NCBI GenBank assembly: GCA_027306655.1
Contig: DAHUZL010000031.1
Coordinates: 830-64,829 of the forward strand
DNA: 64,000 bases
Direction of reading: 5' to 3'
DNA from: Candidatus Dormiibacterota bacterium
GTDB taxonomy: Bacteria; Chloroflexota; Dormibacteria; Aeolococcales; Bog-877
Part shown: positions 5,574-47,037 of the stretch, piece by piece
Layout of the letters: each line of letters begins with the position of its first letter
Numbering within the stretch: position 1 is the stretch's first letter
Made by a program: the position numbers and the translations under genes
The notes under the pieces: generated by a model
The model's database searches: none
Told to the model about the DNA's origin: nothing
The model's input: the letters and a program-made list of their open reading frames with translations, nothing else

Positions 5574-7691
5574 TCAGTCGGCGCGCCGGAGGAGCTGAAG
5601 CGAGCGCCCCTCGACGCCGACCAGTTCGCCGGCCCGCCGCGGCGGGCCCTCCGCCAGCGGGTCCCCCGCCGCGGTGTCGAGGATCCCCACCCACCGCTGG
5701 CCCCAGCGCCCCTGGGGGAGCCGGAACGGCACCGGCTCGTGGTGGGCGTTGAGGAGGACGAAGAAGCTGTCGTCGGTGACCCGCTCGCCCCTGCGCCCCG
5801 GGCTCGGGATCTGGTCGCCGTTGAGGAAGACGCCGATCGACTTGACGAAGCCCTGGCCCCACTCGTCGTCGGTCATCTCCTCCCCGCTGGGGGTGAACCA
5901 GCCGATGTCGGAGACCCCGGAGCCGTGCAGCGGGCGCCCCTCGAACCACTTGCGCCGGTGCAGGACCGGATGGCGCTGGCGCAGGCCCACCAGGTGGGCG
6001 GTGAAGTCCAGCAGCCGGCGGGCCTCGTCGTCCAGCTCCCACTCGAACCAGGAGAGCGCCGTGTCCTGGCAGTAGGCGTTGTTGTTGCCGGCCTGGGTCC
6101 GCCCCATCTCGTCGCCGCCGAGGATCATCGGAACCCCCTGGGAGAGCAGCAGGGTGGCGAGCATGTTGCGCGACTGGCGCCGTCGCAGGGCGCTGACCGC
6201 GGGATCGTCGGTGGGCCCCTCGGCGCCGCAGTTCCAGGACCGGTTGTCGTCGGCGCCGTCGCGATTGTCCTCGCCGTTGGCCTGGTTGTGCTTGTGCTCG
6301 TAGCTGACCAGGTCGCGGAGGGTGAAGCCGTCGTGGCAGGTGATGAAGTTGATCGAGGCGTACGGGCGCCGGCCGTTGGACGCGTAGAGGTCGGAGCTGC
6401 CCGTGAATCGGTAGGCGAACTCGGCGACGCCCCGCTCCGCCCCCCGCCAGTAGTCGCGGACGGTGTCCCGGTAGCGACCGTTCCACTCCGACCAGAGGGG
6501 GGGGAAGTTGCCCACCTGATAACCGCCCTCGCCGACGTCCCAGGGCTCGGCGATCAGCTTGACCTGGCTCACCACCGGGTCCTGCTGGATCAGGTCGAAG
6601 AACGCCGAGAGACGGTCGACGTCGTGGAGCTCGCGGGCCAGGGTGGCGGCGAGGTCGAAGCGGAAGCCGTCGACGTGCATCTCCAGGACCCAGTAGCGGA
6701 GGCTGTCCATGATCAGCTGGAGCACGTGGGGATGGCGCATGTTCATGGTGTTGCCGGTACCGGTGTAGTCGATGTAGCGGCGCGGGTCGGCGGGGTCGAG
6801 CCGGTAGTAGGCCTCGTTGTCGATGCCCCGGAAGCAGAGGGTCGGGCCCCGCTCGCTGCCCTCGCCGGTGTGGTTGTAGACCACGTCCAGAATCACCTCG
6901 ATCCCGGCGGCGTGGAGGGCCTTGACCATGGCCTTGAACTCGGGCACCTGCTGTCCGCGCGGGCCGGCGGCGCTGTAGGCGGCGTGGGGGGCGAGGAACC
7001 CGATCGAGTTGTAGCCCCAGTAGTTGCGGAGCCCGCGGGCGGCGAGCCGGCCGTCGTCCACGAAGTGGTGCACCGGGAGCAGCTCCAGGGCGGTGATCCC
7101 GAGCCGCTCCAGGTGAGCGATCACCGCCGGGGTGGCGAGGCCGGCGTAGGTCCCCCGGAGCTCGAGCGGGACGTCGGGGTGACGCATGGTGAGGCCGCGG
7201 ACGTGGGCCTCGTAGACCACGGTCTCGTGCCAGGGAGTGCGCAGGGGCCCGTCGCTGCCCCAGTCGAAGGCGGGGTCGACCACCACCGAGCGGGGCACCA
7301 GGCCGGCGCTGTCCTCGGTGTTGCGGAGCGTCTCCGCGTCGGGGGCGTCGAAGGGGTAGCCGTGGACCGCCTCGGCCCAGCGGACGTCCCCGTCGATGGC
7401 CCGGGCGTAGGGGTCGATCAGGAGCTTGTGGGGGTTGTAGCGGAGCCCGTCGCGGGGTCGGTGGGGGCCATCCACGCGGTAGCCGTAGCGCTGCCCCGGC
7501 CCCACCCCGGGCAGGTAGGCATGCCAGCAGAAGGCGGTCACCTCGCTGAGATCGACCGCGGTCTCGCGGCCGGCGTCGTCGAAGAGGCAGAGCCGGACCT
7601 GGTCGGCGTGCTCGGCGAAGAGGGAGAAGTTGGTTCCCCGTCCGTCGTAGGTCGCGCCCAGCGGGTACGGCTGTCCCGGCCAGGTGGTCAC
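5574..7691 (-). CDS. glgX: Glycogen debranching enzyme GlgX (GH13)
   Basis: [37 protein letters not shown] aligns with the GlgX N-terminus, and GH13 catalytic regions follow. I trimmed the ORF-track 5' extension (to 8585) to the GTG at 7691-7689, which overlaps the uvrB stop (GTGA). Confidence 0.85.
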
Positions 7692-28623: not shown

Positions 28624-30095
28624 GCCACCCGCTCCCGCGCCAGGGGCGGAGGCTCGGCCACGCCCTGGACGGCCTCCAGGGCGGCCGCGACCCGAAGGCA
28701 GCGGGCGTCGGCGAAGGCCGGGGCGGCGACCTGGAGGCCGACCGGCAGCCCATCGGCCTGGTCGATCGGCACCGAGATCGCCGGCACCCCGGCCAGCGAG
28801 AAGGGGACGGTGAGGACGTCACTCTGATACATCGCCAGCGGGTCGGCGACCCGCGACCCGATCGGGAAGGCGACGGTCGGCGAGGTGGGGGCGAGGATCG
28901 CGTCCACCTCCTCGAAGACGCGGGCGAGGTCGGCCGCCACCAGGGTCCGCACCTGCTGCGCCCGGCGGTAGTAGGCGTCGTAGTAGCCGGAGCTGAGGGC
29001 GTACGTCCCGAGCATGATCCGCCGCCGCACCTCGGGGCCGAACCCGTCATGGCGGGCCCGATCGTAGGCCTCCCGAACCGTGGCCGCGGCGGGGGCCCCC
29101 GGACCGAAGCGCAGCCCGTCCATCCGGGCGAGGTTGCTGGAGGCCTCGGCGGGGGCGATGACGTAGTAGGCGGCGAGCGCGAACCGGGTGCTGGGAATGC
29201 TGACCGGCTCCAGCCGGGCGCCCTGGGCGGCGAGCCGGTCGCAGGCGGCCTCGAACGCCCGTCGCACCCCCTCCTCCAGACCGGCCTCGACGTACTCCCG
29301 GGGGACCCCGAGCCGCAGCCCCTCCACCCCGCCCGCCAGTCCCGGCAGCGGGTCCTCGACGTCGCGCCGGCTCGAGGTGGCGTCGCGGGGGTCGTGCCCG
29401 GCGATGGCCCGATAGACCAGAGCGCAGTCGCCCACGGTGCGGGTGAACGGCCCCACCTGGTCCAGCGAGCTGGCGAACGCGATCAGGCCGTACCGGCTCA
29501 CCCGACCGTAGGTGGGCTTGAAGCCCACCACGCCGCAGAGCGCGGCCGGCTGACGGATCGACCCGCCGGTGTCGGTCCCCAGGCTGCAGGTGACGAGGCC
29601 GGCCGCCACCGCCGCGGCCGACCCGCCGCTGCTCCCGCCGGGGACGCGGTCCAGTCCATGGGGGTTGTGCGTCACCCGGTGGGCGGAGTTCTCGGTGGAG
29701 CTCCCCATCGCGAACTCATCGCAGTTGCAGTGGCCCACCAGCACCGCGCCGGCCTCGGTCAGGCGGCGGACCGCGGTCGCCGTGTAGGGGGGGACGAAGC
29801 CCCGGAGGATGCGGCTCCCGGCGGTGGTCTCCACCCCCTCGACGCAGAGGACGTCCTTCACCCCGACCGGGATCCCGCACAGGTCGGGGGCCGCCGCGCC
29901 GTCCCGCGCCCGTCGCTGGTCCGCCGCCGCCGCCGCCGCCCGGGCGGTGTCGGGCGTGAGCCGCAGGAACGCCCCCACGCGGCCGTCGAGGTGGGCGATG
30001 CGGCGGAGGGCCTCCTCGATCAGCCCCGCGCTGGTCACCTCGCCCGAGCGCAGCGCCCGGGCCTGCTCCGTCAGCGGCCGCAGCAGCCAGCTCAC
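28620..30095 (-). CDS. gatA: Glutamyl-tRNA(Gln) amidotransferase subunit A (amidase signature family)
   Basis: Amidase signature [14 protein letters not shown] with the Ser-cisSer-Lys triad context. 491 aa. Start overlaps the gatC stop; stop overlaps the gatB start. Confidence 0.95.
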
Positions 30096-30376
30096 TGGAT
30101 CGCCGGCACCCGGATGAGGTCCGCCTCCCGATTGGCGGCGCCCGCGAGCGCTCGGTCCACCGGGAGCGACGGGTCGACGGTGTCGGGGCGGTCGGCGTCC
30201 CCCGGGTCGCCGACCTGGAGGGTGGGGTCGATGCCGCTGGTGTCAGCGTCCTGGAGCTGGTCCACGGCGGTGAGGATCACCCCCAGCTGGTCCGCGGCCC
30301 TCCCCACCTCCTCCTCGTCCAACCCCAGCCGCGCGAGATCGGCGACGTGGCGCACCACCGCCGGGTCGATCGGCAT
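30092..30376 (-). CDS. gatC: Glu-tRNA(Gln) amidotransferase subunit C
   Basis: 94 aa with the GatC-like N-terminus (VRHVADLARLGLDEEEV). Heads the gatCAB operon. Confidence 0.9.
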   Translation of the reverse strand: MPIDPAVVRHVADLARLGLDEEEVGRAADQLGVILTAVDQLQDADTSGIDPTLQVGDPGDADRPDTVDPSLPVDRALAGAANREADLIRVPAIQ

Positions 30377-30528
30377 CGAGGATCCCTCAGGTTGGCGGCG
30401 ACCCGCCCGGGCGGCTCAGCCGCGATCCGTGGCGCCGGTCGCGCCCAGGGTGGCTCGGTCGCCCGCAGCGGCCACCCCGTCCGGATGGTACCTGGCGTGC
30501 CAGACGAGCATATGCTACAGTGTCGCAC

Positions 30529-30771
30529 ATGAGGACCGGAGTGCGCGAGCTTCGCAACCAGACGCGTCAGGTGATCGATGCGGTGCGGGCCGGTGAGCGG
30601 GTCGTCCTGACCGTGCACGGCGCGGCGGTTGCGGACATCGTGCCCCACGGCCAGCGGTCCCGCTGGCTGGCCGGCGACCCTCTGCGTCGAGCGCTCGCCG
30701 AACGGGCAGCTGACCCGGCGCTCCGCGGTGATCTCAAGAGCCTCATCGGACAGACCCTGGACGAGCTGTGA
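30529..30771 (+). CDS. Type II antitoxin, Phd/YefM family
   Basis: MRTGVRELRNQTRQVIDAVRAGERVVLTVHGAAVADIVP is a classic Phd/YefM N-terminal fold. It probably starts at the ATG at 30529 (the ORF-track GTG at 30520 adds MSH). Its stop overlaps the VapC start. Confidence 0.75.
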   Translation: MRTGVRELRNQTRQVIDAVRAGERVVLTVHGAAVADIVPHGQRSRWLAGDPLRRALAERAADPALRGDLKSLIGQTLDEL

Positions 30772-31172
30772 TCGAGCCGGCCGGGCTCCTCGACACCTCG
30801 GTGTTCATCGCCCGCGAGGGGGGGCGACCCCTCGGCGAGCTGCCGGCCCGGGTGACGGTGTCGGTGATCACCCTGGGCGAACTCGAACTGGGAGTGCTGA
30901 GCGCTCCCGATGCCGCCTCCCGGGCTCGCCGGGGGGACACTTTGGCTCTCGCCAGGACCGCGGAGCCGGTTCCGATCAGCGAACCCATCATGGGGGCGTG
31001 GGCCCGCCTGGTGGCCGATTGCCGGGCCGCCGGTCTCCAGCGGACGGTCAAGATCACCGACGCGCTGATCGCCGCGACCGCGATCGACCTCGGCGTGCCG
31101 GTGGTGACCCAGGACGAGGACTACGACCAGATCGCGAGAGCGCACCGACCCCTCCACGTCCTCAAGGTGTAG
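30768..31172 (+). CDS. vapC: PIN-domain toxin VapC
   Basis: LLDTSVFIA (first acidic residue), further conserved D/E/D/D positions, and the C-terminal VVTQDEDY. 134 aa. The GTG start overlaps the Phd stop. Confidence 0.8.
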   Translation: MIEPAGLLDTSVFIAREGGRPLGELPARVTVSVITLGELELGVLSAPDAASRARRGDTLALARTAEPVPISEPIMGAWARLVADCRAAGLQRTVKITDALIAATAIDLGVPVVTQDEDYDQIARAHRPLHVLKV

Positions 31173-31274
31173 GGGCCGCTGCCGGGGAACGGGTCGACAG
31201 CCCGGACTGGGCGCGCCGGGCCGCGCTGGCTGGCGCACAGCCGCACGCGTCGGCGAGGGGCGTCGAGCGTATGT

Positions 31275-31280
31275 GTATAA
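31275..31280 (+). promoter_or_regulatory. Perfect TATAAT -10 hexamer just upstream of the second TA module (leaderless or near-leaderless transcript)
   Basis: gtatgtgTATAATatggggtgtggcg. The first candidate start codons (GTG 31289, TTG 31298) lie 9-18 nt downstream. Confidence 0.35.
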
Positions 31281-31288
31281 TATGGGGT

Positions 31289-31519
31289 GTGGCGAGATTG
31301 AACGTCTATCTCCCCGACGATCTGGCCGCCGCGGCGAGGCGGGCGGGTCTCAATGTCTCCGGACTGACCCGCGACGCGGTCCAGCGGGCGCTCACGTCCC
31401 GTTCCACGGACGAATGGCTCGCCACCCTGCGCCCGGTGCCCGCGCACCGGGCGACCCATGGCGGCGTGCTTGCCGCCCTCGACGCGGACCGCGACGAGCT
31501 CGCCACCCGCTGGGGCTGA
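31289..31519 (+). CDS. Ribbon-helix-helix (CopG/VapB-like) antitoxin
   Basis: NVYLPDDLAAAARRAGLNVSGLTRDAVQRAL has the beta-strand plus two-helix RHH pattern. Starts at GTG 31289 or TTG 31298. Sits upstream of, and overlaps, a PIN gene. Confidence 0.6.
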   Translation: MARLNVYLPDDLAAAARRAGLNVSGLTRDAVQRALTSRSTDEWLATLRPVPAHRATHGGVLAALDADRDELATRWG

Positions 31520-31898
31520 GGTCGTCGTCGACGCCTCGGCCCTGGTCGACCTCCTGCTCGGGGGCCCCCTCGGGGACCGGGTGGCGGCGCGGATCGCCGG
31601 CCGCCGACTGCACAGCCCTGCCCACCTCGACGCCGAGGTGCTGTCGGCACTGGGACGGATCCACCGCGCCGGCGACCTGTCGGCGGCAGCGGTCGAGACG
31701 CTGCTGGGGCGCTTGGTCGCGGCCCCGATCGCGCGGCATCCCGTGACCGCGCTCGTGGCCGGCGCCTGGTCCCGGCGCGGCCGCCTGCGCCTGGCCGACG
31801 CCCTCTATGTCGAGCTGGCGGCCGCGCTCGACCTGACGCTGGTGACCACGGACCGCCGGCTGGCAGCTCTCCCCGGTGCCGAGGTGGTCAGCGCCTGA
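31458..31898 (+). CDS. vapC: PIN-domain toxin (VapC family)
   Basis: VVVDASALVDLLLG and the C-terminal LVTTDRRL are PIN hallmarks. The only canonical start is the ATG at 31458, which overlaps the antitoxin by 62 nt; a shorter form with a non-canonical start is possible. Confidence 0.7.
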   Translation: MAACLPPSTRTATSSPPAGAEVVVDASALVDLLLGGPLGDRVAARIAGRRLHSPAHLDAEVLSALGRIHRAGDLSAAAVETLLGRLVAAPIARHPVTALVAGAWSRRGRLRLADALYVELAAALDLTLVTTDRRLAALPGAEVVSA

Positions 31899-31947
31899 CG
31901 GCGCCGATGTGCCGGTCGTGCCGGGCGGCCGGCCGTGGACCCCTCCC

Positions 31948-34900
31948 CTACGCCCGGCGGGCGCCGACCGACTCCGGCCGCGGCGCGTCCGGGCTCGCGC
32001 TCCCAGCGTCCGCGATCGCGCGGGCCCGATCGGCCCACGGCCACGCGCTGAAGTCGGTCAGCGCCGTGATCGCCGCCCGGGCCAGCGGCTCGGAGGCAGC
32101 CGGACGGCCGATCGCGGCCAGCCACTCGGCGTGGTCGAGCCGGGCCCGCGCCAGCCAATAGGGATAGCCGAGACGGCTGAGCGCGTCCTCGGCGGCGGTG
32201 AAGCCGGCCGCAGCCGCGCCCTCGTCGCCGCGGGCGGCGGCCAGGCGGGCTCGGAACCGATCCACCTGGGCCCGCAGGTAGGGGGGGACCCGCCCCGGGG
32301 CCTGGGCCAGCACGGGCGCCAGCAGGCGGTCCACACGCTCCGGGTCGCCTCCGCCGAGCGCGGCCTCGAGGGCGTCGGGGAGGAGCTGACGGGTGATGAT
32401 GTTGCCGAGGCCGAACAGGCCCATCGCCTCCGCCAGCGCCCCGTCCGCCACCTGGAGGGCAGGCCCCGGCTGACCCTCGGCCATCAGCGTCGCGACCTCG
32501 CCCGTGAGGAACGCGAGCCGGCGCTCGGCATGCGCGGTGGCGCGCTCGGCCTCGAGCCGGGCCAGGCCGTCCCGGCACTCCGCGGGCTCTCCCCGCCAGG
32601 CGGCGAGCAGCACCCGGCACCACCCGACGTGCACCGCGAGCGCCCCGCCCGGATCGTCGGCGGCGGGGCGCCCCAGAGCCTCGGTCATCAGCTGGGCGGC
32701 CTCGTCGGCGCAGCCGGCGAAGAGCAGGGCCAGGCCCAGGCTGTGAAGGCTGCTCGCCTCCATCTGTCGCAGGCCGAGGCGGCGGGCCTCCGCCAGGACC
32801 GCTCGCGCCTGGTCGGCGCCACTCGGCACGTCCCAGGCGAGAGCCTCCTCGGTGAGGTTGGAGCGAACCACCAGGCCCTGCCGGAACAGCCCCGCGGCGT
32901 CGGCGGTGTCCGCCGCCAGCCGGTAGTAGGCCTCTGCCTCCCGGATCCTGGCCAGGTTGCTGAGCCAGATCGCCTTGCCGTTGGCCGCGGTGGAGAGGAC
33001 CCGCGGGAGCTCGAGGGCGGCCGACTCGCTGAGGGCGGTCTCGATCAGGGGGCCGGCCTCCTCTCCCCGCCCGGCGACGACCAGCGCCCCGCCGAGTTGG
33101 GCATGCACCGCCGCCCGCACCGCCGCGTTGGCGGCGCCAGGGCCCTCGAGTGCCGCCAGCATTGGACTGAGCCGTGCGATCGCCTCGTCCGGACGACCGA
33201 GGCTGGTCAGCGAGTTGGCGATCTGGGTGGTGACCCGGCCCGCGTCCACCACCCGGTCGGCGGCGGCGTGGATGGCGGCCGCCTGGTCGAAGAGCGCCGC
33301 GGCCCGAGCCGGCTGGCCTGCGTCCAGGGCCGCCTCGCCGGCCGCCTCGGCGTGGCGCGCCACCGCCGCGGGGGTCACCGCCAGGGCCAGCGCCTGCTGG
33401 CTCGCCGCCAGCGCGGCCTCGGGCGCCCCCAGCTCGGCGGCCCGCTGGGCCGCCCGGGCGAAGGCCTCCTCCGCCGCCTCGCGCAGGGGGGTCTCGTCGG
33501 GGTCGCCGAGGGCCGCCTCGAGCGCGCGGAAGCGATGGATCGCGACTGCCTCGGCGACCTCGGCGCCTCCCTCGGCGAAGGTCGCCTCCAGGTGGGTGGC
33601 GGCGGCGAGGTGGTGCGCCTTGCGCTCGGACCGGGTGAGCAGCTCATAGGCGACCTGTCGGAACAGCTGCTGGCCGAAGGCGTACTGGCCGCGCTCCGGA
33701 GAGAGCCGGTCGGCCCGCAGGACCAGGACCTCCTTGCGGACCAGCTGGGCCAGCAGCCGCGCCAGCGCCTCGGGCGGCTGGCCGCCGATCGCTCCCGCGG
33801 CCATGGCCGGGAACGCGCCCGCGAACACGGAGAGGGCGGTCGCCAGCCGGCGCTCGTCGGGGTCGAGGGCATCGAGCCGGGCCGCCAGCAGGGTGGTGAG
33901 CGAGACCGGCAGCGCCAGGGCGTCCGGTTCGCGGAGGACGGTGTAGCTGCCCTCGTCGGTCGCGCGGAGGAAGCCCTGGTCGTGGAGGGCGCGGAGGAGC
34001 TCGGTCACGAACAGGGGAATGCCCTCGGACCGGTCCCGGAGGGCGTCACGGAGGGGAAGCGGGCAGCCGGGGACCAGGGCCTCGATCAGCTCGCTCAGCG
34101 CCGGCGGCGGGAGCGGCTGCACCCACAGGGGGGTGACCGCGCGCCGGGAGCCGAGGTCGGGGCGTCGCTCCAGCAGCTCGGGCCGACCGCTGAGGATGAG
34201 CAGGAGGGGGTGCTCGCCGGACCAGTCGAGCAGGTGGTCGAGGAAGTCGAGCAGGCCCGGGTCGGCCCACTGGGCATCGTCCACCCACACCACGGAGGGA
34301 GCCGTCTGCGCCAGCCGTTCGAGGAAGAGCCGCCAGCCGGCGAAGAGCTCGTCACGGGTGAGGTCGCGGGTGGTCGGCAGGCCGAGCAGGACGGCCAGGG
34401 CCGGCCCCACCCACGCCTGCTCGCCGAGGTCGGGCACGTACGCCGCCAGCCCCGTCTCCAGCTTGGCCGTGGCCGCCGCCGCGTCATCGCTCTCCAGAAG
34501 CCCCAACCGACCGCGGACCACCTGCGCCAGCGCGTAGAAGGCGACCCCCTCGCCGTAGGCGAGGCAGCGGCCGGTGTGCCAGAGGACGGTGGCGCTGAGC
34601 CCGTCGAGGTAGGAGCCGAGCTCGGCCGCCAGCCGGCTCTTCCCCACCCCCGGCGGGCCCAGGAGCAGGATCAGCCGGGCCCGGCGTTCCTCGGCGGTGG
34701 TGTGGTAGAGCTCCTTCAGGGTGGCCAGCTCGCGGGCCCGGCCCACCAGGGGGATCGCCTGCCCCAGGCTGTGGTCCTCGCCGCCGAGCCCGGCCACCAC
34801 CCGGAGCGCGCGGTAGAGGGCCTGGGGCTCCGCCTTGCCCTTGAGGACGTGGGTGCCGGCGTCGGTGAAGCCGATCGCCACCCGCGCCGCCGCCCAGGTG

Positions 34901-35586
34901 GCAGCGTCGGTCAGGACCTGGCCCGGGCCGCCGGCGGCCTGGATCCGGGCTGCGGTGTTGACCAGGTCACCCGCCACCAGCCCCTCGCCCTGGGCCGCCC
35001 AGGTGGCGACCGCCCCGCTGCCGACGCCCGCGCGCGCGGCCAGCTCCCCCGTGCCGCGGGTTTCGCCGTACGCGGGCACGGCGGTCACGATCTCGAGGGC
35101 CGCGCGGACCGCGCGCTCGGCCTGGTCCTCGGTGGCCCGGCCCGCCCCCCACACCGCCATCACCGCGTCGCCGATAAATTTCTCCAGCACCCCCCCGTGA
35201 CGGGTGACCGCTCGGCGGGCGAGGTCGAAGTACCCGGAGAGCAGCTCACGGACGTCCTCGGGGTCGCGTCCCTCGGCCAGCGACGTGAACCCGACCAGGT
35301 CGACGAAGAGGACGGAGACCAGGTGCCGCTCCGAGCCGGCCCGCTGCTCCGGTGGCGGTGCCGGCCCGGCGGACCCGACCGTGCCGGGGACGGCGGCCGC
35401 CGGCTCCGGGGCGGGCCCGGCCAGGAGGGTCGCGCCGCAGTCGGCGCAGTGGCGCTGGTCGGGGCGGATGGCAGCGGCGCCGCAGCGGGGGCAGGCGCTG
35501 GCCAGGGCCGCGCCACAGCTGGCGCAGAACCGCTGGCCCGGCGCCAGCACCGCCGCGCCACAGGCTGGGCATGGGGCCGGATCCAT
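31948..35586 (-). CDS. Multidomain signalling protein, 1212 aa: N-terminal double zinc ribbon, class III adenylate/guanylate cyclase (CHD), AAA_16-type STAND ATPase, and C-terminal TPR-like helical repeats
   Basis: CPACG...CASCG...CPRCG...CADCG (four CxxC); cyclase motifs LVSVLFVDLVGFTSL and KFIGDAVMAVWG; Walker A LLLGPPGVGKS; Walker B/AAA_16 signature VVWVDDAQWAD; then ~650 aa of Ala/Leu-rich helical repeats. Start trimmed to the ATG at 35586 (MDPAPCPACG). Confidence 0.8.
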   Translation of the reverse strand: MDPAPCPACGAAVLAPGQRFCASCGAALASACPRCGAAAIRPDQRHCADCGATLLAGPAPEPAAAVPGTVGSAGPAPPPEQRAGSERHLVSVLFVDLVGFTSLAEGRDPEDVRELLSGYFDLARRAVTRHGGVLEKFIGDAVMAVWGAGRATEDQAERAVRAALEIVTAVPAYGETRGTGELAARAGVGSGAVATWAAQGEGLVAGDLVNTAARIQAAGGPGQVLTDAATWAAARVAIGFTDAGTHVLKGKAEPQALYRALRVVAGLGGEDHSLGQAIPLVGRARELATLKELYHTTAEERRARLILLLGPPGVGKSRLAAELGSYLDGLSATVLWHTGRCLAYGEGVAFYALAQVVRGRLGLLESDDAAAATAKLETGLAAYVPDLGEQAWVGPALAVLLGLPTTRDLTRDELFAGWRLFLERLAQTAPSVVWVDDAQWADPGLLDFLDHLLDWSGEHPLLLILSGRPELLERRPDLGSRRAVTPLWVQPLPPPALSELIEALVPGCPLPLRDALRDRSEGIPLFVTELLRALHDQGFLRATDEGSYTVLREPDALALPVSLTTLLAARLDALDPDERRLATALSVFAGAFPAMAAGAIGGQPPEALARLLAQLVRKEVLVLRADRLSPERGQYAFGQQLFRQVAYELLTRSERKAHHLAAATHLEATFAEGGAEVAEAVAIHRFRALEAALGDPDETPLREAAEEAFARAAQRAAELGAPEAALAASQQALALAVTPAAVARHAEAAGEAALDAGQPARAAALFDQAAAIHAAADRVVDAGRVTTQIANSLTSLGRPDEAIARLSPMLAALEGPGAANAAVRAAVHAQLGGALVVAGRGEEAGPLIETALSESAALELPRVLSTAANGKAIWLSNLARIREAEAYYRLAADTADAAGLFRQGLVVRSNLTEEALAWDVPSGADQARAVLAEARRLGLRQMEASSLHSLGLALLFAGCADEAAQLMTEALGRPAADDPGGALAVHVGWCRVLLAAWRGEPAECRDGLARLEAERATAHAERRLAFLTGEVATLMAEGQPGPALQVADGALAEAMGLFGLGNIITRQLLPDALEAALGGGDPERVDRLLAPVLAQAPGRVPPYLRAQVDRFRARLAAARGDEGAAAAGFTAAEDALSRLGYPYWLARARLDHAEWLAAIGRPAASEPLARAAITALTDFSAWPWADRARAIADAGSASPDAPRPESVGARRA

Positions 35587-35743
35587 CCCTCCCGCCTCTC
35601 CTACGCCGTCGCCACGGCCGGTGCCACGCGCGGAACGTACCACGGGGCGCCGACCCCATGGAGGTCCCCCCCGCTGCTCGGCGGCCCGTGCGGTCCCGTG
35701 CTGCGACGGTGCCGTGCCGACCGAAGACCGCATGCGCCACCGC

Positions 35744-36154
35744 TCATCCGGGGACGATCTCCAGTCGATGCCGGCCGTGGAGTCGGTAGACTCGGAAGTC
35801 GCTGTCCAGGGTGAACACGCGACGATCCCCACGCTCCTCGGCCAGAGCGACGAGAGTGGCGTCGGCGAGGTCCATGGGCAGGTCCGCGTACTTGGTCATC
35901 AGGACGGAGCTGCGCTCCAGGGTTGGCCGAGACAGATCGGCAATCTCCAATCGCCGGCTCAGGACCAGCTTCCACAACGCATCCCGACCCCGTCGGCCGC
36001 CCGCTCGTGACACCAGGTACATGGCCTCGGTGAACGCCGGCCACGTCGTGAGCCACGGGAGGGGGAGCCGCTCCGCGACCATCCGGCACAGCTGGTGGTC
36101 GGGTTCGTCGGCGTCGATCAGCGCGACGAGCGGCCCCGCGTCGGTCAGGGTCAC
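35744..36154 (-). CDS. PIN-domain toxin (VapC-like)
   Basis: LVALIDADEPDH near the N-terminus and the C-terminal FTLDSDF are a PIN acidic-residue pattern. 136 aa. Start overlaps the upstream RHH gene stop (ATGA). Confidence 0.7.
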   Translation of the reverse strand: MTLTDAGPLVALIDADEPDHQLCRMVAERLPLPWLTTWPAFTEAMYLVSRAGGRRGRDALWKLVLSRRLEIADLSRPTLERSSVLMTKYADLPMDLADATLVALAEERGDRRVFTLDSDFRVYRLHGRHRLEIVPG

Positions 36155-36396
36155 GCTGGCGACGAGGGTTCGGCCACGATGTCGGTGAACGTCTCCCCCG
36201 TGCGCCGGGCTCGACCACCGCCGCCATGGACAACGCCGAGCACGTCGGTCAGGTCGTCAGCGTGACCGACCACCAGGGTCGCATCGGCCCGCTCGGCGGC
36301 GGCACGACGGATGAACTCCGACAGTGACTCCCCTCGGACGGCGGCCGCGCGCTGGAGCCTGCCCTCGAGCTCGGGATCGAGCCGAACACTCTTCAT
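36151..36396 (-). CDS. Ribbon-helix-helix (CopG family) antitoxin
   Basis: MKSVRLDPELEGRLQRAAAVRGESLSEFIRRAAAERA has the canonical RHH pattern. 81 aa, immediately upstream of the PIN gene. Confidence 0.7.
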   Translation of the reverse strand: MKSVRLDPELEGRLQRAAAVRGESLSEFIRRAAAERADATLVVGHADDLTDVLGVVHGGGGRARRTGETFTDIVAEPSSPA

Positions 36397-36405
36397 CGCC
36401 CCACG

Positions 36406-36433
36406 GTATCACGAGTTCGGTCAGACGTGATAC
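36406..36433. promoter_or_regulatory. 8-bp perfect inverted repeat (GTATCACG-N12-CGTGATAC) 10-35 nt upstream of the RHH antitoxin start; candidate autoregulatory operator
   Basis: Read directly: ggtatcacgagttcggtcagacgtgatac. Confidence 0.4.
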
Positions 36434-36872
36434 GCATCCGCCCGGGACACCCGCCATCCTCCGGCGTTGCGCCCCACCGCGGTTCGGTGGCGGCGGCCGA
36501 GGGGGCGGTCGGTGAGCGGCACCCGCTGCAGCGCTCCGTCTACGGGGTCCCGGCTCGGGACCGGCGCCCCGCTGATTGCCACGATCCGCCGCACCCCGGC
36601 GGCCTGCATCGCCCGAAGGATGCGGCGCGCGCCCCGGGAGCACACGGTCACGCCGTCCGCACCCCGGTGGGGGCCGAGCGCGGACAGCACCGCTTCGGCG
36701 TCCGCAAGGTCCGTACCGACAGCGGGTCGAAGATGTCGGCCTGGAGGACCCGAAGATTGTGATGCTCCACCCGGAGGCGCGCGGGATCACGGTCCACGGC
36801 GGTGACCTCATGCCCCTGGGCCAACGCCCGCTCCAAGATCGCCCGGTTCCCTCCCATGCGGAACCCCACCGG
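36421..36872 (-). pseudogene. Disrupted NAD(P)-binding NmrA/atypical-SDR-like gene (frameshifted, 3'-truncated)
   Basis: Two overlapping minus-strand ORFs in different frames (36648-37019 and 36421-36690) together align with an NmrA/YwnB-like Rossmann protein (GNRAILERALAQGHEVTAVDRDPARL... then GVRRIVAISGAPV...). There is a frameshift near 36680, and the reading frame ends at 36421 against the RHH-PIN module, so the C-terminal ~60 aa are missing. Confidence 0.5.
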
Positions 36873-37000
36873 GTGGGTGGAGACGGTTCCGGTCGGCCGC
36901 CGTGGCGGAGCCGGTCGAGCGCCGCGTTGGCCGATCGACATGGAGGCGCACCAGCATCGTAGCGACATCGGCTCCGTCGGCAGCCACCCACGGGTCGGCC

Positions 37001-37423
37001 TCATCGGGTCATCTCCCACGGGTCGATCACATCGACCCCCGTGTCCCGAAAGTCCTTGAGGTTCCGCGTTGCCAGGGTGGCATTGTGGGCCCGGCAGATG
37101 GCGGCAATCTGTGCGTCGACGCCATCGATAGGTGCACCGACGCTCTCTCGGTGAGTGACGATCTCTGAATAGGCCACCGCCGCGGTCGCGTCGAAAGGCA
37201 GCACCTGCTCAGGGAAACCGGAGAACACGCCGGCAGCGGAGTGGCGCAGGAGGTCCTTGCGCGGGCCGTCAGGCAGCCGCTCGATGCCGTAGAGGATCTC
37301 GGCAAGCGTGATCGCCGTGGTGTACAGATCGGCGGTGTTGCAGGCTCTCACCCACGCCGTCACCGCTGGTGACGGCGTGGGCTTCATCAGCTCGGAGGTG
37401 ACGTTGGTATCGACGATGATCAT
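37001..37423 (-). CDS. vapC: PIN-domain toxin VapC (FitB-like)
   Basis: MIIVDTNVTSEL N-terminus and conserved acidic positions, ending NLKDFRDTGVDVIDPW. 140 aa. Start overlaps the antitoxin stop (ATGA). Confidence 0.8.
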   Translation of the reverse strand: MIIVDTNVTSELMKPTPSPAVTAWVRACNTADLYTTAITLAEILYGIERLPDGPRKDLLRHSAAGVFSGFPEQVLPFDATAAVAYSEIVTHRESVGAPIDGVDAQIAAICRAHNATLATRNLKDFRDTGVDVIDPWEMTR

Positions 37424-37665
37424 GCAGAGAGGTCGGCCGCCCGTGCCCGGGTCGTCCGACGGGACAGCTCAAGGTCGACGCCTCCGATGTCGCCGAAGCG
37501 GTCTTGTAGGGCAATGAACAGTCCCTCCGGGGGCCGCGGCTGGCTGACGGCGGCGACCAGGATGGAGCGGATCTCCGCCTCCATCGACCGGCCGTGGCGA
37601 GCCGCCCTGACCCGCAACCGTTCCCGCACGTGGTCGTCGAGACCGCGAATGCTCACTGCCGCCAC
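37420..37665 (-). CDS. FitA/VapB-like antitoxin (Arc/MetJ-type RHH, plasmid-stability-like)
   Basis: MAAVSIRGLDDHVRERLRVRAARHGRSMEAEIRSIL matches the FitA/StbC-like pattern. GTG start with a GAAGGAGG SD 7 nt upstream. Confidence 0.65.
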   Translation of the reverse strand: MAAVSIRGLDDHVRERLRVRAARHGRSMEAEIRSILVAAVSQPRPPEGLFIALQDRFGDIGGVDLELSRRTTRARAADLSA

Positions 37666-37685
37666 CGCGGTGCCTCCTTCAGTCC

Positions 37686-37700
37686 GCTAGCAATGCTAGC
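37686..37700. promoter_or_regulatory. Perfect palindrome GCTAGCA-A-TGCTAGC ~20 nt upstream of the FitA-like antitoxin start; candidate operator
   Basis: Read directly: ccgctagcaatgctagcac. Confidence 0.4.
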
Positions 37701-37745
37701 ACACGGGCTGCGACCGATCGATGACCGGCAGGGCCGCTTCGATCG

Positions 37746-39800
37746 TCACTCCTCCCCGGCCGCGCCCTCCGACGCCAGCGGCCGGTCGGGATGCGCCAGG
37801 GCATCGCGGAACGCCTCCTCGTCGAGGATCGGGACGCCCAGGCGCCCGGCCCGCTCCCGCTTGGTCCCGGGGTTGGCGCCGGCGACGACGAACGCCGTCT
37901 TGCGCGAGACGCTGCTCGCCGCGGTGCCGCCGAGGGCGGCGATCCTCGACTCCGCCTCGGCCCGCGTCATCGCCACCAGGGTGCCGGTCAGCACCACGCT
38001 CCGCCCCCGCCAGGGCCCGGAGGTCACGGCGGCCTCGACCGGCTCCACCCCGGCACCGAGGAGGGAATCCACCAGCGTGGCCCCCTCGCCGGAGAGGAAC
38101 AGGGCCACCGCCGGGCCGACCACGGGCCCCACCCCGGGGACCTGGGCCAGGGCCTCGGCGCCGGCCCGACGGATCCGCTCCAGGGTCCCGAAGTGCTGGG
38201 CGAGGAGGCGGGCGGTGTGTGTGCCGACGTGGCGGATCCCGAGCGCGGTGAGGAAGCGGGCGAGCTCGACCCGGCGCCGGTTGCCGATCGCCGCTGCCAG
38301 CTGGCGCGCCGAGCGCTCGGCGAAGCCGTCCAGCCCGGCTAGGTCCGCCGCCCCCAGGCGGAAGAGGTCGGACGGGTCGCGCACCAGCTGGCGGGAGAGA
38401 AGCTGGTCCACCACGCTGGGACCAAGCCCGCGGATGTCGAACCCGTCGCGGCCGACGAGGTGGAGCAGGTGCTCGCGCCGCTGCGCCGGGCAGAGCGGGT
38501 TGGGGCAGCGGCGGGCGACCTCGCCCGCCTCGCGCACCAGCTCGTGGTCGCATTCGGGGCAGCGCTCGGGCATGCGGAACGGGGCGGCCCCGGCGGGCCG
38601 GAGCTCCAGCAGCACCTGCTCGATCTCGGGGATCACGTCGCCCGCCTTGTGGACCCGGACGGTGTCGCCGACGCGCACGTCCTTGCGCGCCACCTCGTCC
38701 TCGTTGTGGAGGGTGGCGTGCTGCACGGTCGACCCCGCCACCGCCACCGGACGGAGCTGGGCGACCGGGGTGGCGACCCCGGTCCGGCCGATGTGGACGT
38801 CGATCGCCACCACCTGGGTGACGCTGGCCTCGGGCGGGAACTTGTAGGCGATCGCCCAGCGCGGGTGGCGGCTGACCGCCCCCAGCTCCGCCCGGTCCCG
38901 GAGCCGGTCGACCTTGATCACCAGCCCGTCGGTGTCGTAGTCGAGCCCGTGACGGGCCTCGTGCCAGCGGGCGATCTGGGCGTGGGCCTGGGCGGCGTCC
39001 GAGACCCGGGCCGAGTGGGGCTCGACCGGCAGCCCCAGCGTGCGGAGGGCGTGGAGCGCCGCCGATTGGGTCTCCACCCCGTCCGGCGGCGGGTCCACCT
39101 GGTAGGTCCAGGTGCGCAGGCCCCGGGCGGCGGTGACGCGGGGGTCCTGCTGGCGCAGGCTCCCGGCGGCGGCGTTGCGGGGGTTGGCGTAGGGGGGCTG
39201 CCCGGCCGCGTCCTGGGCCTCGTTGAGGCGCAGGAAGGCGGACCGTGGCAGGTACACCTCCCCCCGCACCTCGACCAGGGGCGGGAGCCGGACGGGCCCC
39301 GTCGGGGAGAGCTCGGCGGGGACGTCCTGGAGGGTGCGGACGTTGGCGGTGACGTCCTCACCGGTCACCCCGTCGCCGCGGGTCGCGGCCCGGGTGAGCC
39401 GGCCCGCCTCGTAGGTGAGCGAGATCGCCAGCCCATCGATCTTCAGCTCGGAGACGAAGTCCCGGACCTCGGGGAGGAGGCGCTCCACCCGGGCAAAGAA
39501 CTGGTCCACCTCGGCCAGGTCGAAGGCGTCCTGGAGCGAGAGCATGGGGGTGTGGTGGCGCCACTTGCGGAAGAAGGCGGCTCCCCGGGCGCCCACGGTC
39601 CGGGTCGGCGAGTCCTTCGTCCGCAGCCGGGGATGGCGCGCCTCCAGCTCCTCCAGCTCGCGCAGGAGCCGGTCGTAGGCATCGTCGCTGAGCTCGGGCG
39701 CGTCCAGCACGTGGTAGAGGTAGTTGGCGTGGTGGAGCTCCTCGCGCAGACGTCCGGCCCGGCGGCGAGCCTCGGGCGGGACCGCCGCCTCCGGCGCCAT
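37746..39800 (-). CDS. ligA: NAD-dependent DNA ligase
   Basis: 684 aa with an NAD-ligase adenylation domain (KxDG context), OB fold, Zn-finger Cys (CPECDHEL...C), HhH, and a C-terminal BRCT. Confidence 0.95.
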   Translation of the reverse strand: MAPEAAVPPEARRRAGRLREELHHANYLYHVLDAPELSDDAYDRLLRELEELEARHPRLRTKDSPTRTVGARGAAFFRKWRHHTPMLSLQDAFDLAEVDQFFARVERLLPEVRDFVSELKIDGLAISLTYEAGRLTRAATRGDGVTGEDVTANVRTLQDVPAELSPTGPVRLPPLVEVRGEVYLPRSAFLRLNEAQDAAGQPPYANPRNAAAGSLRQQDPRVTAARGLRTWTYQVDPPPDGVETQSAALHALRTLGLPVEPHSARVSDAAQAHAQIARWHEARHGLDYDTDGLVIKVDRLRDRAELGAVSRHPRWAIAYKFPPEASVTQVVAIDVHIGRTGVATPVAQLRPVAVAGSTVQHATLHNEDEVARKDVRVGDTVRVHKAGDVIPEIEQVLLELRPAGAAPFRMPERCPECDHELVREAGEVARRCPNPLCPAQRREHLLHLVGRDGFDIRGLGPSVVDQLLSRQLVRDPSDLFRLGAADLAGLDGFAERSARQLAAAIGNRRRVELARFLTALGIRHVGTHTARLLAQHFGTLERIRRAGAEALAQVPGVGPVVGPAVALFLSGEGATLVDSLLGAGVEPVEAAVTSGPWRGRSVVLTGTLVAMTRAEAESRIAALGGTAASSVSRKTAFVVAGANPGTKRERAGRLGVPILDEEAFRDALAHPDRPLASEGAAGEE

Positions 39801-43926: not shown

Positions 43927-44235
43927 TCAGGCGGCGCCGTTGGAGCTGACGGCGAGGATGTCCCGCTCCGCCAGGATGAGGTAGTCCTGCTCGTCGATCT
44001 TCACCTCCGAGCCGGCGTACTTGGCGTAGATGACACGGTCGCCGACGACGACGTCGAGGGGCACGCGCTGCCCGGTCTGCTCGTTGTACTTGCCGTTGCC
44101 GACCGCCTCGACCAGCCCCTCCTGGGGCTTCTCCTTGGCGGTGTCGGGCAGGACGATGCCGCTCTTGGTGGTGTCCTCGCGCTCGAGGGGCCGGATCACC
44201 ACACGATCGGCCAGGGGACGAAGCTTCAGGGCCAT
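43927..44235 (-). CDS. groES: Co-chaperonin GroES (10 kDa)
   Basis: [14 protein letters not shown]...[13 protein letters not shown]...[14 protein letters not shown] is classic GroES. 102 aa. Confidence 0.95.
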
Positions 44236-44255: not shown

Positions 44256-44282
44256 TTAGCACTCAACCTGGGAGAGTGCTAA
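44256..44282. promoter_or_regulatory. CIRCE element (HrcA operator) upstream of groES-groEL
   Basis: TTAGCACTC-aacctggga-GAGTGCTAA is a perfect match to the CIRCE consensus TTAGCACTC-N9-GAGTGCTAA. It lies 21 nt upstream of the groES start on the coding strand. Confidence 0.85.
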
Positions 44283-45889: not shown

Positions 45890-46582
45890 TCAGGACCACG
45901 GGGACGCCCGCCGGTCGCCGTAGTCGAGGTGGACCCGGTCGTACCCCGGGCCCGCCTCGGGGTCGGCCCAAAGGCTCCGCGCCGCCAGCCGGGCGAGGGC
46001 GGCGCTCCGGGGCCGCACCGCGGCGGCCGCCCGGCCCGGCGGGAACTCGGCGCCGGCCCCCTCCTCCACCAGGACCCGGGCGGAGCCGCCGATCCCCAGC
46101 GGGGGCTCGCCCCTCGGCACCAGCTCGGCCGGGCCCACCGGCATCCAGGCGCCCCCCTCGGCGCGGAACGCCTGGCGGTGGTGGCCACCCCGGCCGGCGG
46201 GGTGGACCACGAGGATCGGGTGGGGGCCGGGGTCCAGCCGGAAGGCGGTCACCTGGAGGCTGGGCACGGTCCGCAGCGGGCAGCCGCGCGCCTGGGCGGC
46301 GCCGAGCGCGGCCGCCACCCCGAGCCGCAGGCCCGTGTAGGAGCCCGGGCCGCGCCCGGCGACCACCCCCAGGAGGGGGCCGGGGCGACGGCCGAACAGC
46401 CTCCGCACAGCATCCACCAGGGCGCGCTCCGCGGCCCCGGCCCGGTCGTCCGGGGGGGGAACGGCGGCGAGCTCCGGCGGGTCCAGGAGGGTGCCGTCCG
46501 GGGCCACGGCGACGGCGAGCTCCCCCCCCCGCAGCGCCGTGTCCACCGCCAGCAGCCACCCGCCCGGGGCGGTGCCGGTCAC
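45890..46582 (-). CDS. tsaB: tRNA threonylcarbamoyladenosine biosynthesis protein TsaB (YeaZ, inactive Kae1 paralog)
   Basis: WLLAVDTALRGGELAV N-terminus (ASKHA fold) and its position between tsaE and rimI. GTG start trimmed to 46582, which overlaps the tsaE stop (GTGA). Confidence 0.75.
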   Translation of the reverse strand: MTGTAPGGWLLAVDTALRGGELAVAVAPDGTLLDPPELAAVPPPDDRAGAAERALVDAVRRLFGRRPGPLLGVVAGRGPGSYTGLRLGVAAALGAAQARGCPLRTVPSLQVTAFRLDPGPHPILVVHPAGRGGHHRQAFRAEGGAWMPVGPAELVPRGEPPLGIGGSARVLVEEGAGAEFPPGRAAAAVRPRSAALARLAARSLWADPEAGPGYDRVHLDYGDRRASPWS

Positions 46583-47037
46583 CCGGGCTCCCAGGCACGG
46601 CGGAGGTGGCGGGGGGCGTCGAGCTCGAGCCGGCGGCGGTCGCCGATCCCGGGGGTGATCCGGCACCGCGCCGAGAACCAGTCGCCGGCCGCCCGCTCGG
46701 CCCACTCCACCACCACCGCGCCCGACTCCAGCAGCTCCTCCACCCCGAGGCTCTCGAGCTCGACCCCCGGGTCGAGACGGTACAGGTCGAGATGGTGGAC
46801 CGTCAGCGGGCCCGGGTAGATGGCGTGGAGGATGAAGGTCGGGCTGCGCACCCGGTCGGCGGCGCCGGCGCCCTCCACCAGCCCCCGCACCAGCACGGTC
46901 TTGCCGGCCCCGAGGGGGCCGTCGAGGCCCAGGCAGTCGCCTTCGGCCAGCACCGACCCGAGCCGGGCCCCGAGGGCCTGCGTCTCCTTTGGGCCCAGGC
47001 TCGTCCGCTCCAGGCGGGGCCGGGCGGCCTCGGCCAT
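46579..47037 (-). CDS. tsaE: tRNA threonylcarbamoyladenosine biosynthesis ATPase TsaE (YjeE)
   Basis: P-loop GPLGAGKT plus SPTFIL and HHLDLYRL motifs. 152 aa from the ATG at 47037. Confidence 0.8.
   Translation of the reverse strand: MAEAARPRLERTSLGPKETQALGARLGSVLAEGDCLGLDGPLGAGKTVLVRGLVEGAGAADRVRSPTFILHAIYPGPLTVHHLDLYRLDPGVELESLGVEELLESGAVVVEWAERAAGDWFSARCRITPGIGDRRRLELDAPRHLRRAWEPG

Follow-up and report, generated by a model that had tools for sequence, protein, structure and literature searches.

The locus described here raises the question of how a group of toxin-antitoxin (TA) genes came to lie between ligA and gatC, within a chromosomal region otherwise occupied by housekeeping genes, in contig DAHUZL010000031.1 of the Candidatus Dormiibacterota assembly GCA_027306655.1 (the 64,000-nucleotide stretch that was analysed is referred to as the window). 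The gap between the two genes was found to be 7,369 bp (window positions 30377-37745), bounded in gene order on the right by gatC (30092-30376, minus strand; TIGR00135, E 1.9e-15), which is syntenic with gatCAB in relatives, and on the left by ligA (37746-39800, minus strand; 7,992 LigA homologues). Within this interval, termed the island, four apparently intact VapBC-type cassettes were identified (Phd-VapC, CcdA-like ribbon-helix-helix (RHH)-PIN, CopG-like RHH-PIN and FitA-FitB), together with one gene for a 1212-amino acid (aa) cyclase-STAND protein and one pseudogene. No homologues of the PIN, antitoxin or cyclase proteins were found in the remaining 56 kb of the 64-kb window. An insert of approximately 7.4 kb splitting gatC from ligA had been proposed in an earlier note on this DNA and was borne out, while its gene list (four PIN modules, a cyclase/STAND/TPR gene and a frameshifted, truncated NmrA-like remnant) was confirmed gene by gene, as was the opposition of two plus-strand modules to the local minus-strand gene flow. 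With a probability of roughly 80%, the island is a lineage-specific accessory cluster that arose in the ligA-gatCAB spacer through the piecemeal horizontal gain of genes.

Comparison of this spacer among four related lineages, chosen by a LigA protein search after which their contigs were fetched, showed full conservation of gene order on both sides of the spacer in all relatives (groES-groEL-pcrA-ligA on one side and gatCAB-trmA-dnaE on the other). In three of the lineages the gap between ligA and gatC is short, being 3 bp (L087, LigA identity of 72%), 100 bp (L088, 72%) and approximately 630 bp (L089, 65%). The closest other lineage (L084-L086, LigA identity of 76%) was found to carry 7.9 kb of different cargo between the two genes (12059-19935 in L084), comprising an HTH_17 antitoxin-like gene and a PIN gene directly after ligA, a TetR gene, an MFS transporter gene and three genes without a Pfam match. 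The last of these cargo genes varies among the three samples of this lineage (L084-L086), in which lengths of 338, 391 and 423 aa were found. No tblastn match to the island proteins was obtained in the loci of the four lineages, and the same genes in the same order with a uniform composition, as would be seen in an ancestral arrangement, were not found. The earlier proposal of an accessory insert in a housekeeping region is upheld by the three short spacers (3-630 bp), by the unrelated cargo of the fourth lineage and by the deviating G+C content at third codon positions (GC3) described below. When empty-site spacers were aligned to the island junctions, no insertion boundary was recognisable, the sequences being too diverged.

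On a wider scale, gatC or gatA was found downstream of ligA in 42 of 65 informative genomes from many phyla, with gaps ranging from 51 bp to 8.9 kb, and therefore the linkage of ligA and gatC is ancient, with a spacer that is recurrently variable. The earlier note described gatCAB and ligA as normally immediate neighbours in actinobacterial-type genomes; among bacteria in general the gap is variable. In more distant Candidatus Dormibacterota (L001-L004 and L021) pcrA-ligA is kept, with gatCAB not within 10 kb downstream. This placement of ligA without nearby gatCAB contrasts with the window's clade and with many Bacillota, Chloroflexota and Actinomycetota.

The host, to judge from its LigA sequence, is an uncultured, very GC-rich relative of Candidatus Dormibacterota and not an actinobacterium. 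Outside its own small clade its LigA was found to be closest (56-58%, among the matches listed) to metagenome-assembled genomes (MAGs) of Candidatus Dormibacterota, which share the pcrA-ligA arrangement, with an identity of approximately 48-51% to actinobacterial LigA (among the matches listed). The description of the genome as actinobacterial-type is not supported. The source contig is virtually identical (99.5-100%, with 99.5-99.97% for the sister MAGs) to contigs of the MAGs GCA_027313425.1 and GCA_027313325.1 and of two read assemblies, and these same-species contigs jointly tile the whole island, frameshift included. Contigs of the two sister MAGs were also observed to end inside the island, at window positions 33306 (cyclase gene), 36047-36054 (vapC3) and 37235 (vapC4), which hints at strain heterogeneity or uneven coverage.

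The check on composition that had been proposed for this region was carried out and gave a mean GC3 of 0.853 for open reading frames (ORFs) of the island, compared to 0.938 elsewhere in the window (Mann-Whitney p = 2.5e-5). By gene, G+C content was lowest for vapC4 (0.64, the island minimum), intermediate for the other TA genes (0.68-0.74) and highest for the cyclase gene (0.77). This gradation from 0.64 to 0.77 suggests that genes were acquired on several occasions, at different times or from different sources.

The clearest sign of transfer was found in the fourth module, which consists of a FitA-like RHH antitoxin (37420-37665, minus strand; PF22513 FitA-like_RHH, E 5.5e-18; Arc, E 3.8e-6) followed by VapC4, a FitB-type PIN toxin (37001-37423, minus strand; PIN, E 8.1e-15). 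VapC4 is 65-74% identical to many proteins, the named ones being from Pseudonocardiaceae, Solirubrobacterales, Mycobacteriales, Jiangellaceae and Chloroflexota. As this identity to actinomycetotal FitB far exceeds that of LigA (approximately 48-51%), module 4 has been horizontally transferred, and thus at least this part of the island is of foreign origin. Homologues of fitAB exist as two-gene cassettes with unrelated surroundings, including one in a genome with 64% G+C, and FitB homologues were found on 1,259 plasmid records. The 140-aa VapC4 aligns end to end with FitB (2h1o, E 2.5e-23), with D5, E42, D103 and a TRNxxDF motif present, and the entries 2h1o, 2bsq and 2h1c match its residues 1-138 (E approximately 3e-23).

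An operator-like block TGCTAGCATTGCTAGC (37686-37701, minus strand), which contains the palindrome GCTAGCA-A-TGCTAGC at 37686-37700, was identified approximately 20 nt before the start codon of fitA and directly upstream of the GAAGGAGG ribosome-binding site. In homologous fitAB cassettes (L174 and L176) the motif TG(C/A)TAGC(A/G)TTGCTAGC is the only conserved upstream stretch, the rest being unalignable, which indicates that the transferred unit comprises fitA, fitB and the operator. FitA dimers, tethered by FitB, are known to bind their operator (PMC3920265), and this binding mode, along with the conservation of the motif upstream of homologous cassettes, supports the block as a candidate FitA operator. 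Module 4 shares with the FitAB system of Neisseria gonorrhoeae (2h1o, 2bsq) a FitA-like RHH protein, a full-length FitB, the catalytic residues D, E and D, and an upstream inverted TGCTAGC repeat positioned where FitA-FitB binds. It differs in that the fourth acidic residue lies in the TRNxxDF pattern and not in TRD, and a link to intracellular trafficking is not expected here. The gonococcal FitA half-site, which we take to be TGCTATCA, would be identical at 7/8 positions; the gonococcal half-sites are presumably spaced by N12, whereas those found here are adjacent, with a much shorter spacing.

Two further observations were made on this module and its homologues. A perfect inverted repeat with 14-bp arms (CCCACGCCGTCACC-N3-GGTGACGGCGTGGG, 37351-37381) lies within the 5' part of vapC4 and exceeds in length all other A/T-containing palindromes listed from the 64-kb window; it is absent from homologous fitB in L174 and L176, the two homologues checked. 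On the unrelated 545-kb contig L174, a second Phd-PIN pair (63-697) was observed approximately 3 kb from the fitAB homologue, VapBC cassettes being clustered there too.

All four modules were found to consist of two small co-directional genes with the antitoxin first, the toxin and antitoxin genes overlapping by 4 bp in modules 1, 3 and 4 and by approximately 50-62 nt in module 2, depending on the start codon. Each of the four toxins matches the PIN domain PF01850 (E 3.7e-10 to 8.1e-15) and retains its acidic catalytic residues, with the first and third Asp invariant in the alignment; the assignment of the Glu and of the fourth acidic residue comes from inspection of the sequences, supplemented for VapC4 by the alignment with FitB. 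Each antitoxin carries a DNA-binding domain (PhdYeFM, CcdA-type RHH, RHH_1/TacA1 and FitA-like RHH).

Module 1, on the plus strand, encodes a Phd/YefM antitoxin (30520-30771; PF02604, E 2.7e-6; TIGR01552, E 5.2e-7) and VapC1 (30768-31172; PIN, E 6.9e-14). The antitoxin score lies just under the cut-off for Pfam PhdYeFM (27.5 against 29.8 bits) and passes that of TIGR01552 (28.9 against 20.8 bits), and alternative starts exist at ATG 30529 and GTG 30541. The closest solved relative of VapC1 is 3dbo_B (E 8.2e-20), which we take to be from VapBC5 of Mycobacterium tuberculosis. Module 2, also on the plus strand, encodes a CcdA-like RHH antitoxin (31271/31289-31519; PF07362 CcdA, E 1.4e-6, 29 bits against a cut-off of 22.4) that begins either at ATG 31271, the start annotated in the MAGs, or at GTG 31289, and that is an 82-aa gene in the sister assemblies. 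Its toxin, VapC2 (31458-31898; PIN, E 2.4e-14), has its PIN domain starting from residue 22, and a sequence search gave no solved relative. In one sister MAG (L092, GCA_027313325.1) a G-to-T change at the equivalent of window position 31695 was observed to create an E80* stop in VapC2, which may mean that toxin 2 is inactivated in that population or may be a consensus error. Module 3, on the minus strand, encodes a CopG/TacA-like RHH antitoxin (RHH3, 36151-36396; RHH_1, E 8.9e-7; TacA1, E 5.9e-7) and VapC3 (35744-36154; PIN, E 3.7e-10), the closest solved relative of which is VapC26 (5x3t, E 7.9e-8).

The arrangement resembles that of the clustered VapBC systems of M. tuberculosis (VapBC5, VapBC26), with which it shares antitoxin-first operons, overlapping stop and start codons, Phd or RHH antitoxins, PIN toxins with conserved acidic residues and the packing of several cassettes into an accessory region. 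In contrast to those systems, the host is here an uncultured Dormibacterota relative, the identities to solved proteins are remote, and the cluster lies inside a core block of replication and translation genes and not in a recognised genomic island.

Several modules had been credited in the earlier note with palindromic operators or -10 boxes of their own. All of these elements exist; when compared to shuffled sequence, only that of RHH3 clearly, and that of FitA marginally, stands above chance. An inverted repeat forming a candidate operator (GTATCACG-N12-CGTGATAC, 36406-36433) precedes the start codon of RHH3 by 10 bp, and its 8-bp arms were reached in just 37 of 2000 shuffles of the region, which is unusual. 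The arm length of the FitA palindrome was matched in 162/2000 shuffles. Upstream of Phd a 10-bp palindrome, AGCATATGCT (30507-30516), has an arm length not beyond chance. Among the palindromes upstream of modules 1, 3 and 4, only that of module 3 is therefore unusual by shuffling, and only that of module 4 is conserved in homologues. A -10-like hexamer, TACAGT (30516-30521), was recognised by sequence in the gatC/Phd region, and a TATAAT -10 box (31276-31281, plus strand) lies 7 nt upstream of GTG 31289, a placement that would make a leaderless start at that codon possible for antitoxin 2. A scan of the island for consensus sigma-70 promoters and terminators found nothing, with no full sigma-70 site, and folding of the convergent gap between vapC2 and the cyclase gene was no better than that of shuffles (z 0.5).

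The largest gene of the island (31948-35586, minus strand) encodes the 1212-aa protein, which matches Pfam DZR, Guanylate_cyc and AAA_16 (E 1.2e-20) and has the domain order of a double zinc ribbon, a class III nucleotide cyclase, a STAND (AAA_16) NTPase and a TPR array. Its cyclase domain matches class III cyclases of the PDB (E 2.4e-18) and was aligned with 1wc0 and 2w01. Residues D96, K136, D140, N210, R214 and K251 were invariant across 13 homologues, the invariant cyclase residues being the metal-binding Asp pair, the substrate Lys and the transition-state Asn and Arg. The nucleotide used by the cyclase appears uncertain, since the second substrate-specifying position reads as Leu in the alignment in place of the canonical Asp/Thr. 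The NTPase domain carries the Walker A motif GPPGVGKS, and an AlphaFold 2 model of residues 262-1212 (pLDDT, a per-residue confidence score, of 88) shows an alpha/beta NTPase followed by approximately 28 paired helices. When the PDB was searched with this model, the best fold match was the STAND-TPR protein 6mfv, with Avs3 third and 8bob, a maltose-system entry that is presumably MalT, at rank 43, the alignments being of low quality (TM scores of 0.2-0.3). As the cyclase matches, the model and the match to 6mfv agree, the label cyclase/STAND/TPR is correct.

The family of this protein is very large, with 7,995 of 8,000 scored candidates at E <= 1e-20 and those listed being full-length. Self matches aside, the closest member shares 45-48% identity, and those with a named source are from Actinomycetota (among the matches listed); thousands of full-length homologues carry the annotation 'class 3 adenylate cyclase/TPR repeat protein'. 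The same order of cyclase, AAA_16 and helical repeats is found in actinomycetotal cyclase-ATPase-LuxR-like proteins (M. tuberculosis Rv0386, Rv1358 and Rv2488c), and the TOMM kinase/cyclase model TIGR03903 aligns from the cyclase to the TPR region (E 5e-58) at a score far below its cut-off (197 against 706 bits). Proteins of the Rv0386 and TIGR03903 types differ from the island protein, which carries a double zinc ribbon at its N-terminus and lacks a LuxR helix-turn-helix or kinase domain at its C-terminus. With the antiviral Avs STAND proteins it shares the layout of effector, NTPase and TPR sensor, along with the match to Avs3 at the fold level. Its cyclase domain also matches the hidden Markov models of PycC from Pycsar systems, a similarity that would be expected of any class III cyclase domain.

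The neighbourhoods of the cyclase family were surveyed at 80 metagenome loci, at which 143 small neighbours belonging to 94 Pfam families were found within 3 kb. No neighbour family recurred more than three times in the 80 loci, and PIN was absent from the 25 most recurrent families listed. A conserved system formed by the cyclase protein and a PIN toxin was rejected on this census and on phmmer searches. The most plausible view of the 1212-aa gene is that of a signalling passenger, independent of the cassettes and unrelated to them. A search of 2.9 million viral contigs gave isolated cyclase domains only and no full-length cyclase-STAND member. These stand-alone class III cyclase domains, observed on approximately 20 IMG/VR contigs (L178-L203), share 26-41% identity with residues 63-263 of the 1212-aa protein.

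Between modules 3 and 4 lies a pseudogene of a BLVRB/NmrA-like atypical short-chain dehydrogenase/reductase (36421-37019, minus strand), comprising two ORFs that match positions 8-55 and 66-103 of the 184 positions of PF13460 NAD_binding_10. Spliced over one frameshift, it aligns to residues approximately 18-114 of the 206-213-aa proteins 4jgb and 1hdo. The fragment is regarded as a pseudogene because it lacks the N-terminal Rossmann glycine motif and approximately 95 C-terminal residues, and a sequencing error is an unlikely cause of the frameshift because an independent MAG contig shows the same two-frame state. What is left of this NAD(P)H-binding gene represents earlier cargo that has decayed.

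From these parts the following working of the cluster may be proposed. The cassettes would act as four independent type II systems, in each of which the antitoxin gene directly precedes that of the PIN ribonuclease and is coupled to it in translation. The antitoxin-toxin complex would bind a palindrome in its own promoter and repress the operon, while degradation of the labile antitoxin would free the Mg-dependent PIN ribonuclease to cut a specific tRNA or rRNA, leading to translation arrest. Addiction of this kind would make the cassettes resist loss, and hence persist wherever they landed. In the 1212-aa protein, the TPR sensor and NTPase would form a STAND switch over the N-terminal class III cyclase, with ligand-driven oligomerisation probably letting the cyclase domains dimerise and so turning the cyclase on. 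The cluster has no mobility genes of its own and has separated ligA from gatCAB. In relatives, in which ligA and gatCAB are 3-100 bp apart, the two are probably co-transcribed. As gatCAB is cut off from ligA by the island, its promoter would now be expected in the divergent 143-bp region between gatC and Phd (30377-30519), in common with that of the Phd cassette. Toxin activity, autoregulation of the cassettes, the order of their acquisition and this relocation of the gatCAB promoter are what we infer from the arrangement.

Two other origins for the island were weighed against piecemeal acquisition. It might be the decayed remains of a single integrative element (an integrative and conjugative element, a prophage or an integron-like array) that arrived in one insertion and has since been stripped of its integrase and ends, for which the compact cargo in a conserved spacer would speak, as would the role of TA cassettes as typical stabilisers of mobile elements, the occurrence of FitB homologues on plasmid records, the pseudogene as decay in progress and the breaking of MAG contigs within the island. 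However, the island ORFs include no integrase, transposase, conjugation or phage gene, the flanking and internal direct repeats are at chance level only (70-84% matches in DNA of 75% G+C), and the nearest tRNA is 13 kb away. A self-mobile element is for these reasons unsupported, and the word mobile in the earlier note was not sustained, the cluster having the appearance of one assembled piecemeal. The range in G+C content of the modules and their mixed orientation are moreover as expected of separate events, and fitAB homologues travel elsewhere as bare two-gene cassettes; a single element is accordingly quite improbable. An ancestral arrangement lost by the relatives, or a join created by a chimeric assembly, is largely refuted and extremely improbable. 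Such an origin could appeal to the sample of four related lineages, to the filled spacer of the closest relative and to the fact that all sequences are metagenome assemblies. It is opposed by the tight junction of ligA and gatC in three clade lineages and in many other phyla (down to 51 bp), by the cargo of L084, which shares no homologue with the island, by the departure of the island composition from that of the host, and by the independent contigs from three MAGs and two separate sequencing runs that tile the island at 99.5-100% identity.

With regard to function, TA systems can serve phage defence and defence genes gather in variable hot spots, and the island might be a defence island in which the cyclase-STAND-TPR protein acts as an Avs-like phage sensor making a cyclic-nucleotide alarm, with the VapBC cassettes as abortive-infection effectors, either independent or downstream. 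This is consistent with the effector/NTPase/TPR layout common to antiviral STANDs and the rank of Avs3 among fold matches, with the match of the cyclase domain to PADLOC PycC models (E 7.5e-16) and with the variability of the spacer in the sister lineage L084. The PycC matches, however, are limited to the generic cyclase domain, and no gene for a cyclic nucleotide-binding effector, PycTM or PycTIR was found in the island. PADLOC returned just two marginal matches (E approximately 0.004-0.006) for the other nine island products, and no Avs model was matched. The fold matches are led by a generic STAND-TPR protein and have TM scores of only 0.2-0.3, the cyclase family adjoins unrelated, often housekeeping genes at the 80 loci, with neither PIN enrichment nor a conserved defence neighbourhood, and full-length members are missing from the viral contigs searched. 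A role in defence, as had been suggested earlier, is thus unlikely. There is a very slim chance that the spacer is a dedicated, recombinase-independent capture site for PIN cassettes, with the cyclase output coupled to the neighbouring toxins as signalling-controlled abortive infection. For the capture site, it could be argued that two sister lineages filled the spacer independently, with a PIN pair each time at the ligA stop codon; the most suggestive feature is this independent filling in L084, in which a PIN pair again adjoins ligA. Were this reading true, the cyclase-STAND-TPR sensor and the toxins would form a new signalling-controlled abortive-infection system.

Piecemeal horizontal acquisition itself has points that weigh against it. 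The toxicity of the VapC proteins and their neutralisation by the antitoxins are predicted from their families, and three of the four proposed operators are statistically within chance by shuffling. In short genes with weak expression, a lower GC3 could be due in part to weak selection and not to foreign origin, and the cyclase gene may be an old resident or may stem from an equally GC-rich donor, since its composition is near that of the host (GC3 0.92-0.94). Furthermore, the comparison covers four lineages, and for the branch shared with L084 loss from an ancestral site that was already filled may have taken place.

TA-rich accessory clusters in variable chromosomal spacers are of a known kind, and no new mechanism is revealed. 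As an accessory cluster acquired piecemeal, the island provides a clean and comparatively documented case of bare TA cassettes, with putative operators of their own, colonising a permissive spacer in a core gene block, in a host lineage that is little studied and uncultured. The insertion interrupts pcrA-ligA-gatCAB, which probably formed one transcription unit ancestrally. The spacer may be used as a marker of strain or lineage variation in these MAGs, with the caution that spacers of such kind fragment metagenome assemblies.

The window as a whole has a G+C content of approximately 75% and is crowded with housekeeping genes, among them uvrB, polA, fabF, dnaE, gatCAB, ligA and pcrA, with groEL/ES, tsaD, secY and genes for ribosomal proteins also present. 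Two coding-like ORFs on the plus strand, at 45929-46819 and 5674-6075, have GC3 values of 0.90 and 0.99 and matched no Pfam family at E <= 1e-5. Just upstream of groES (43927-44235, minus strand), a perfect inverted repeat, TTAGCACTC-N9-GAGTGCTAA, was identified at 44256-44282. We take this repeat to be the consensus of the CIRCE/HrcA operator, which would imply heat-shock control of the HrcA type in this lineage.

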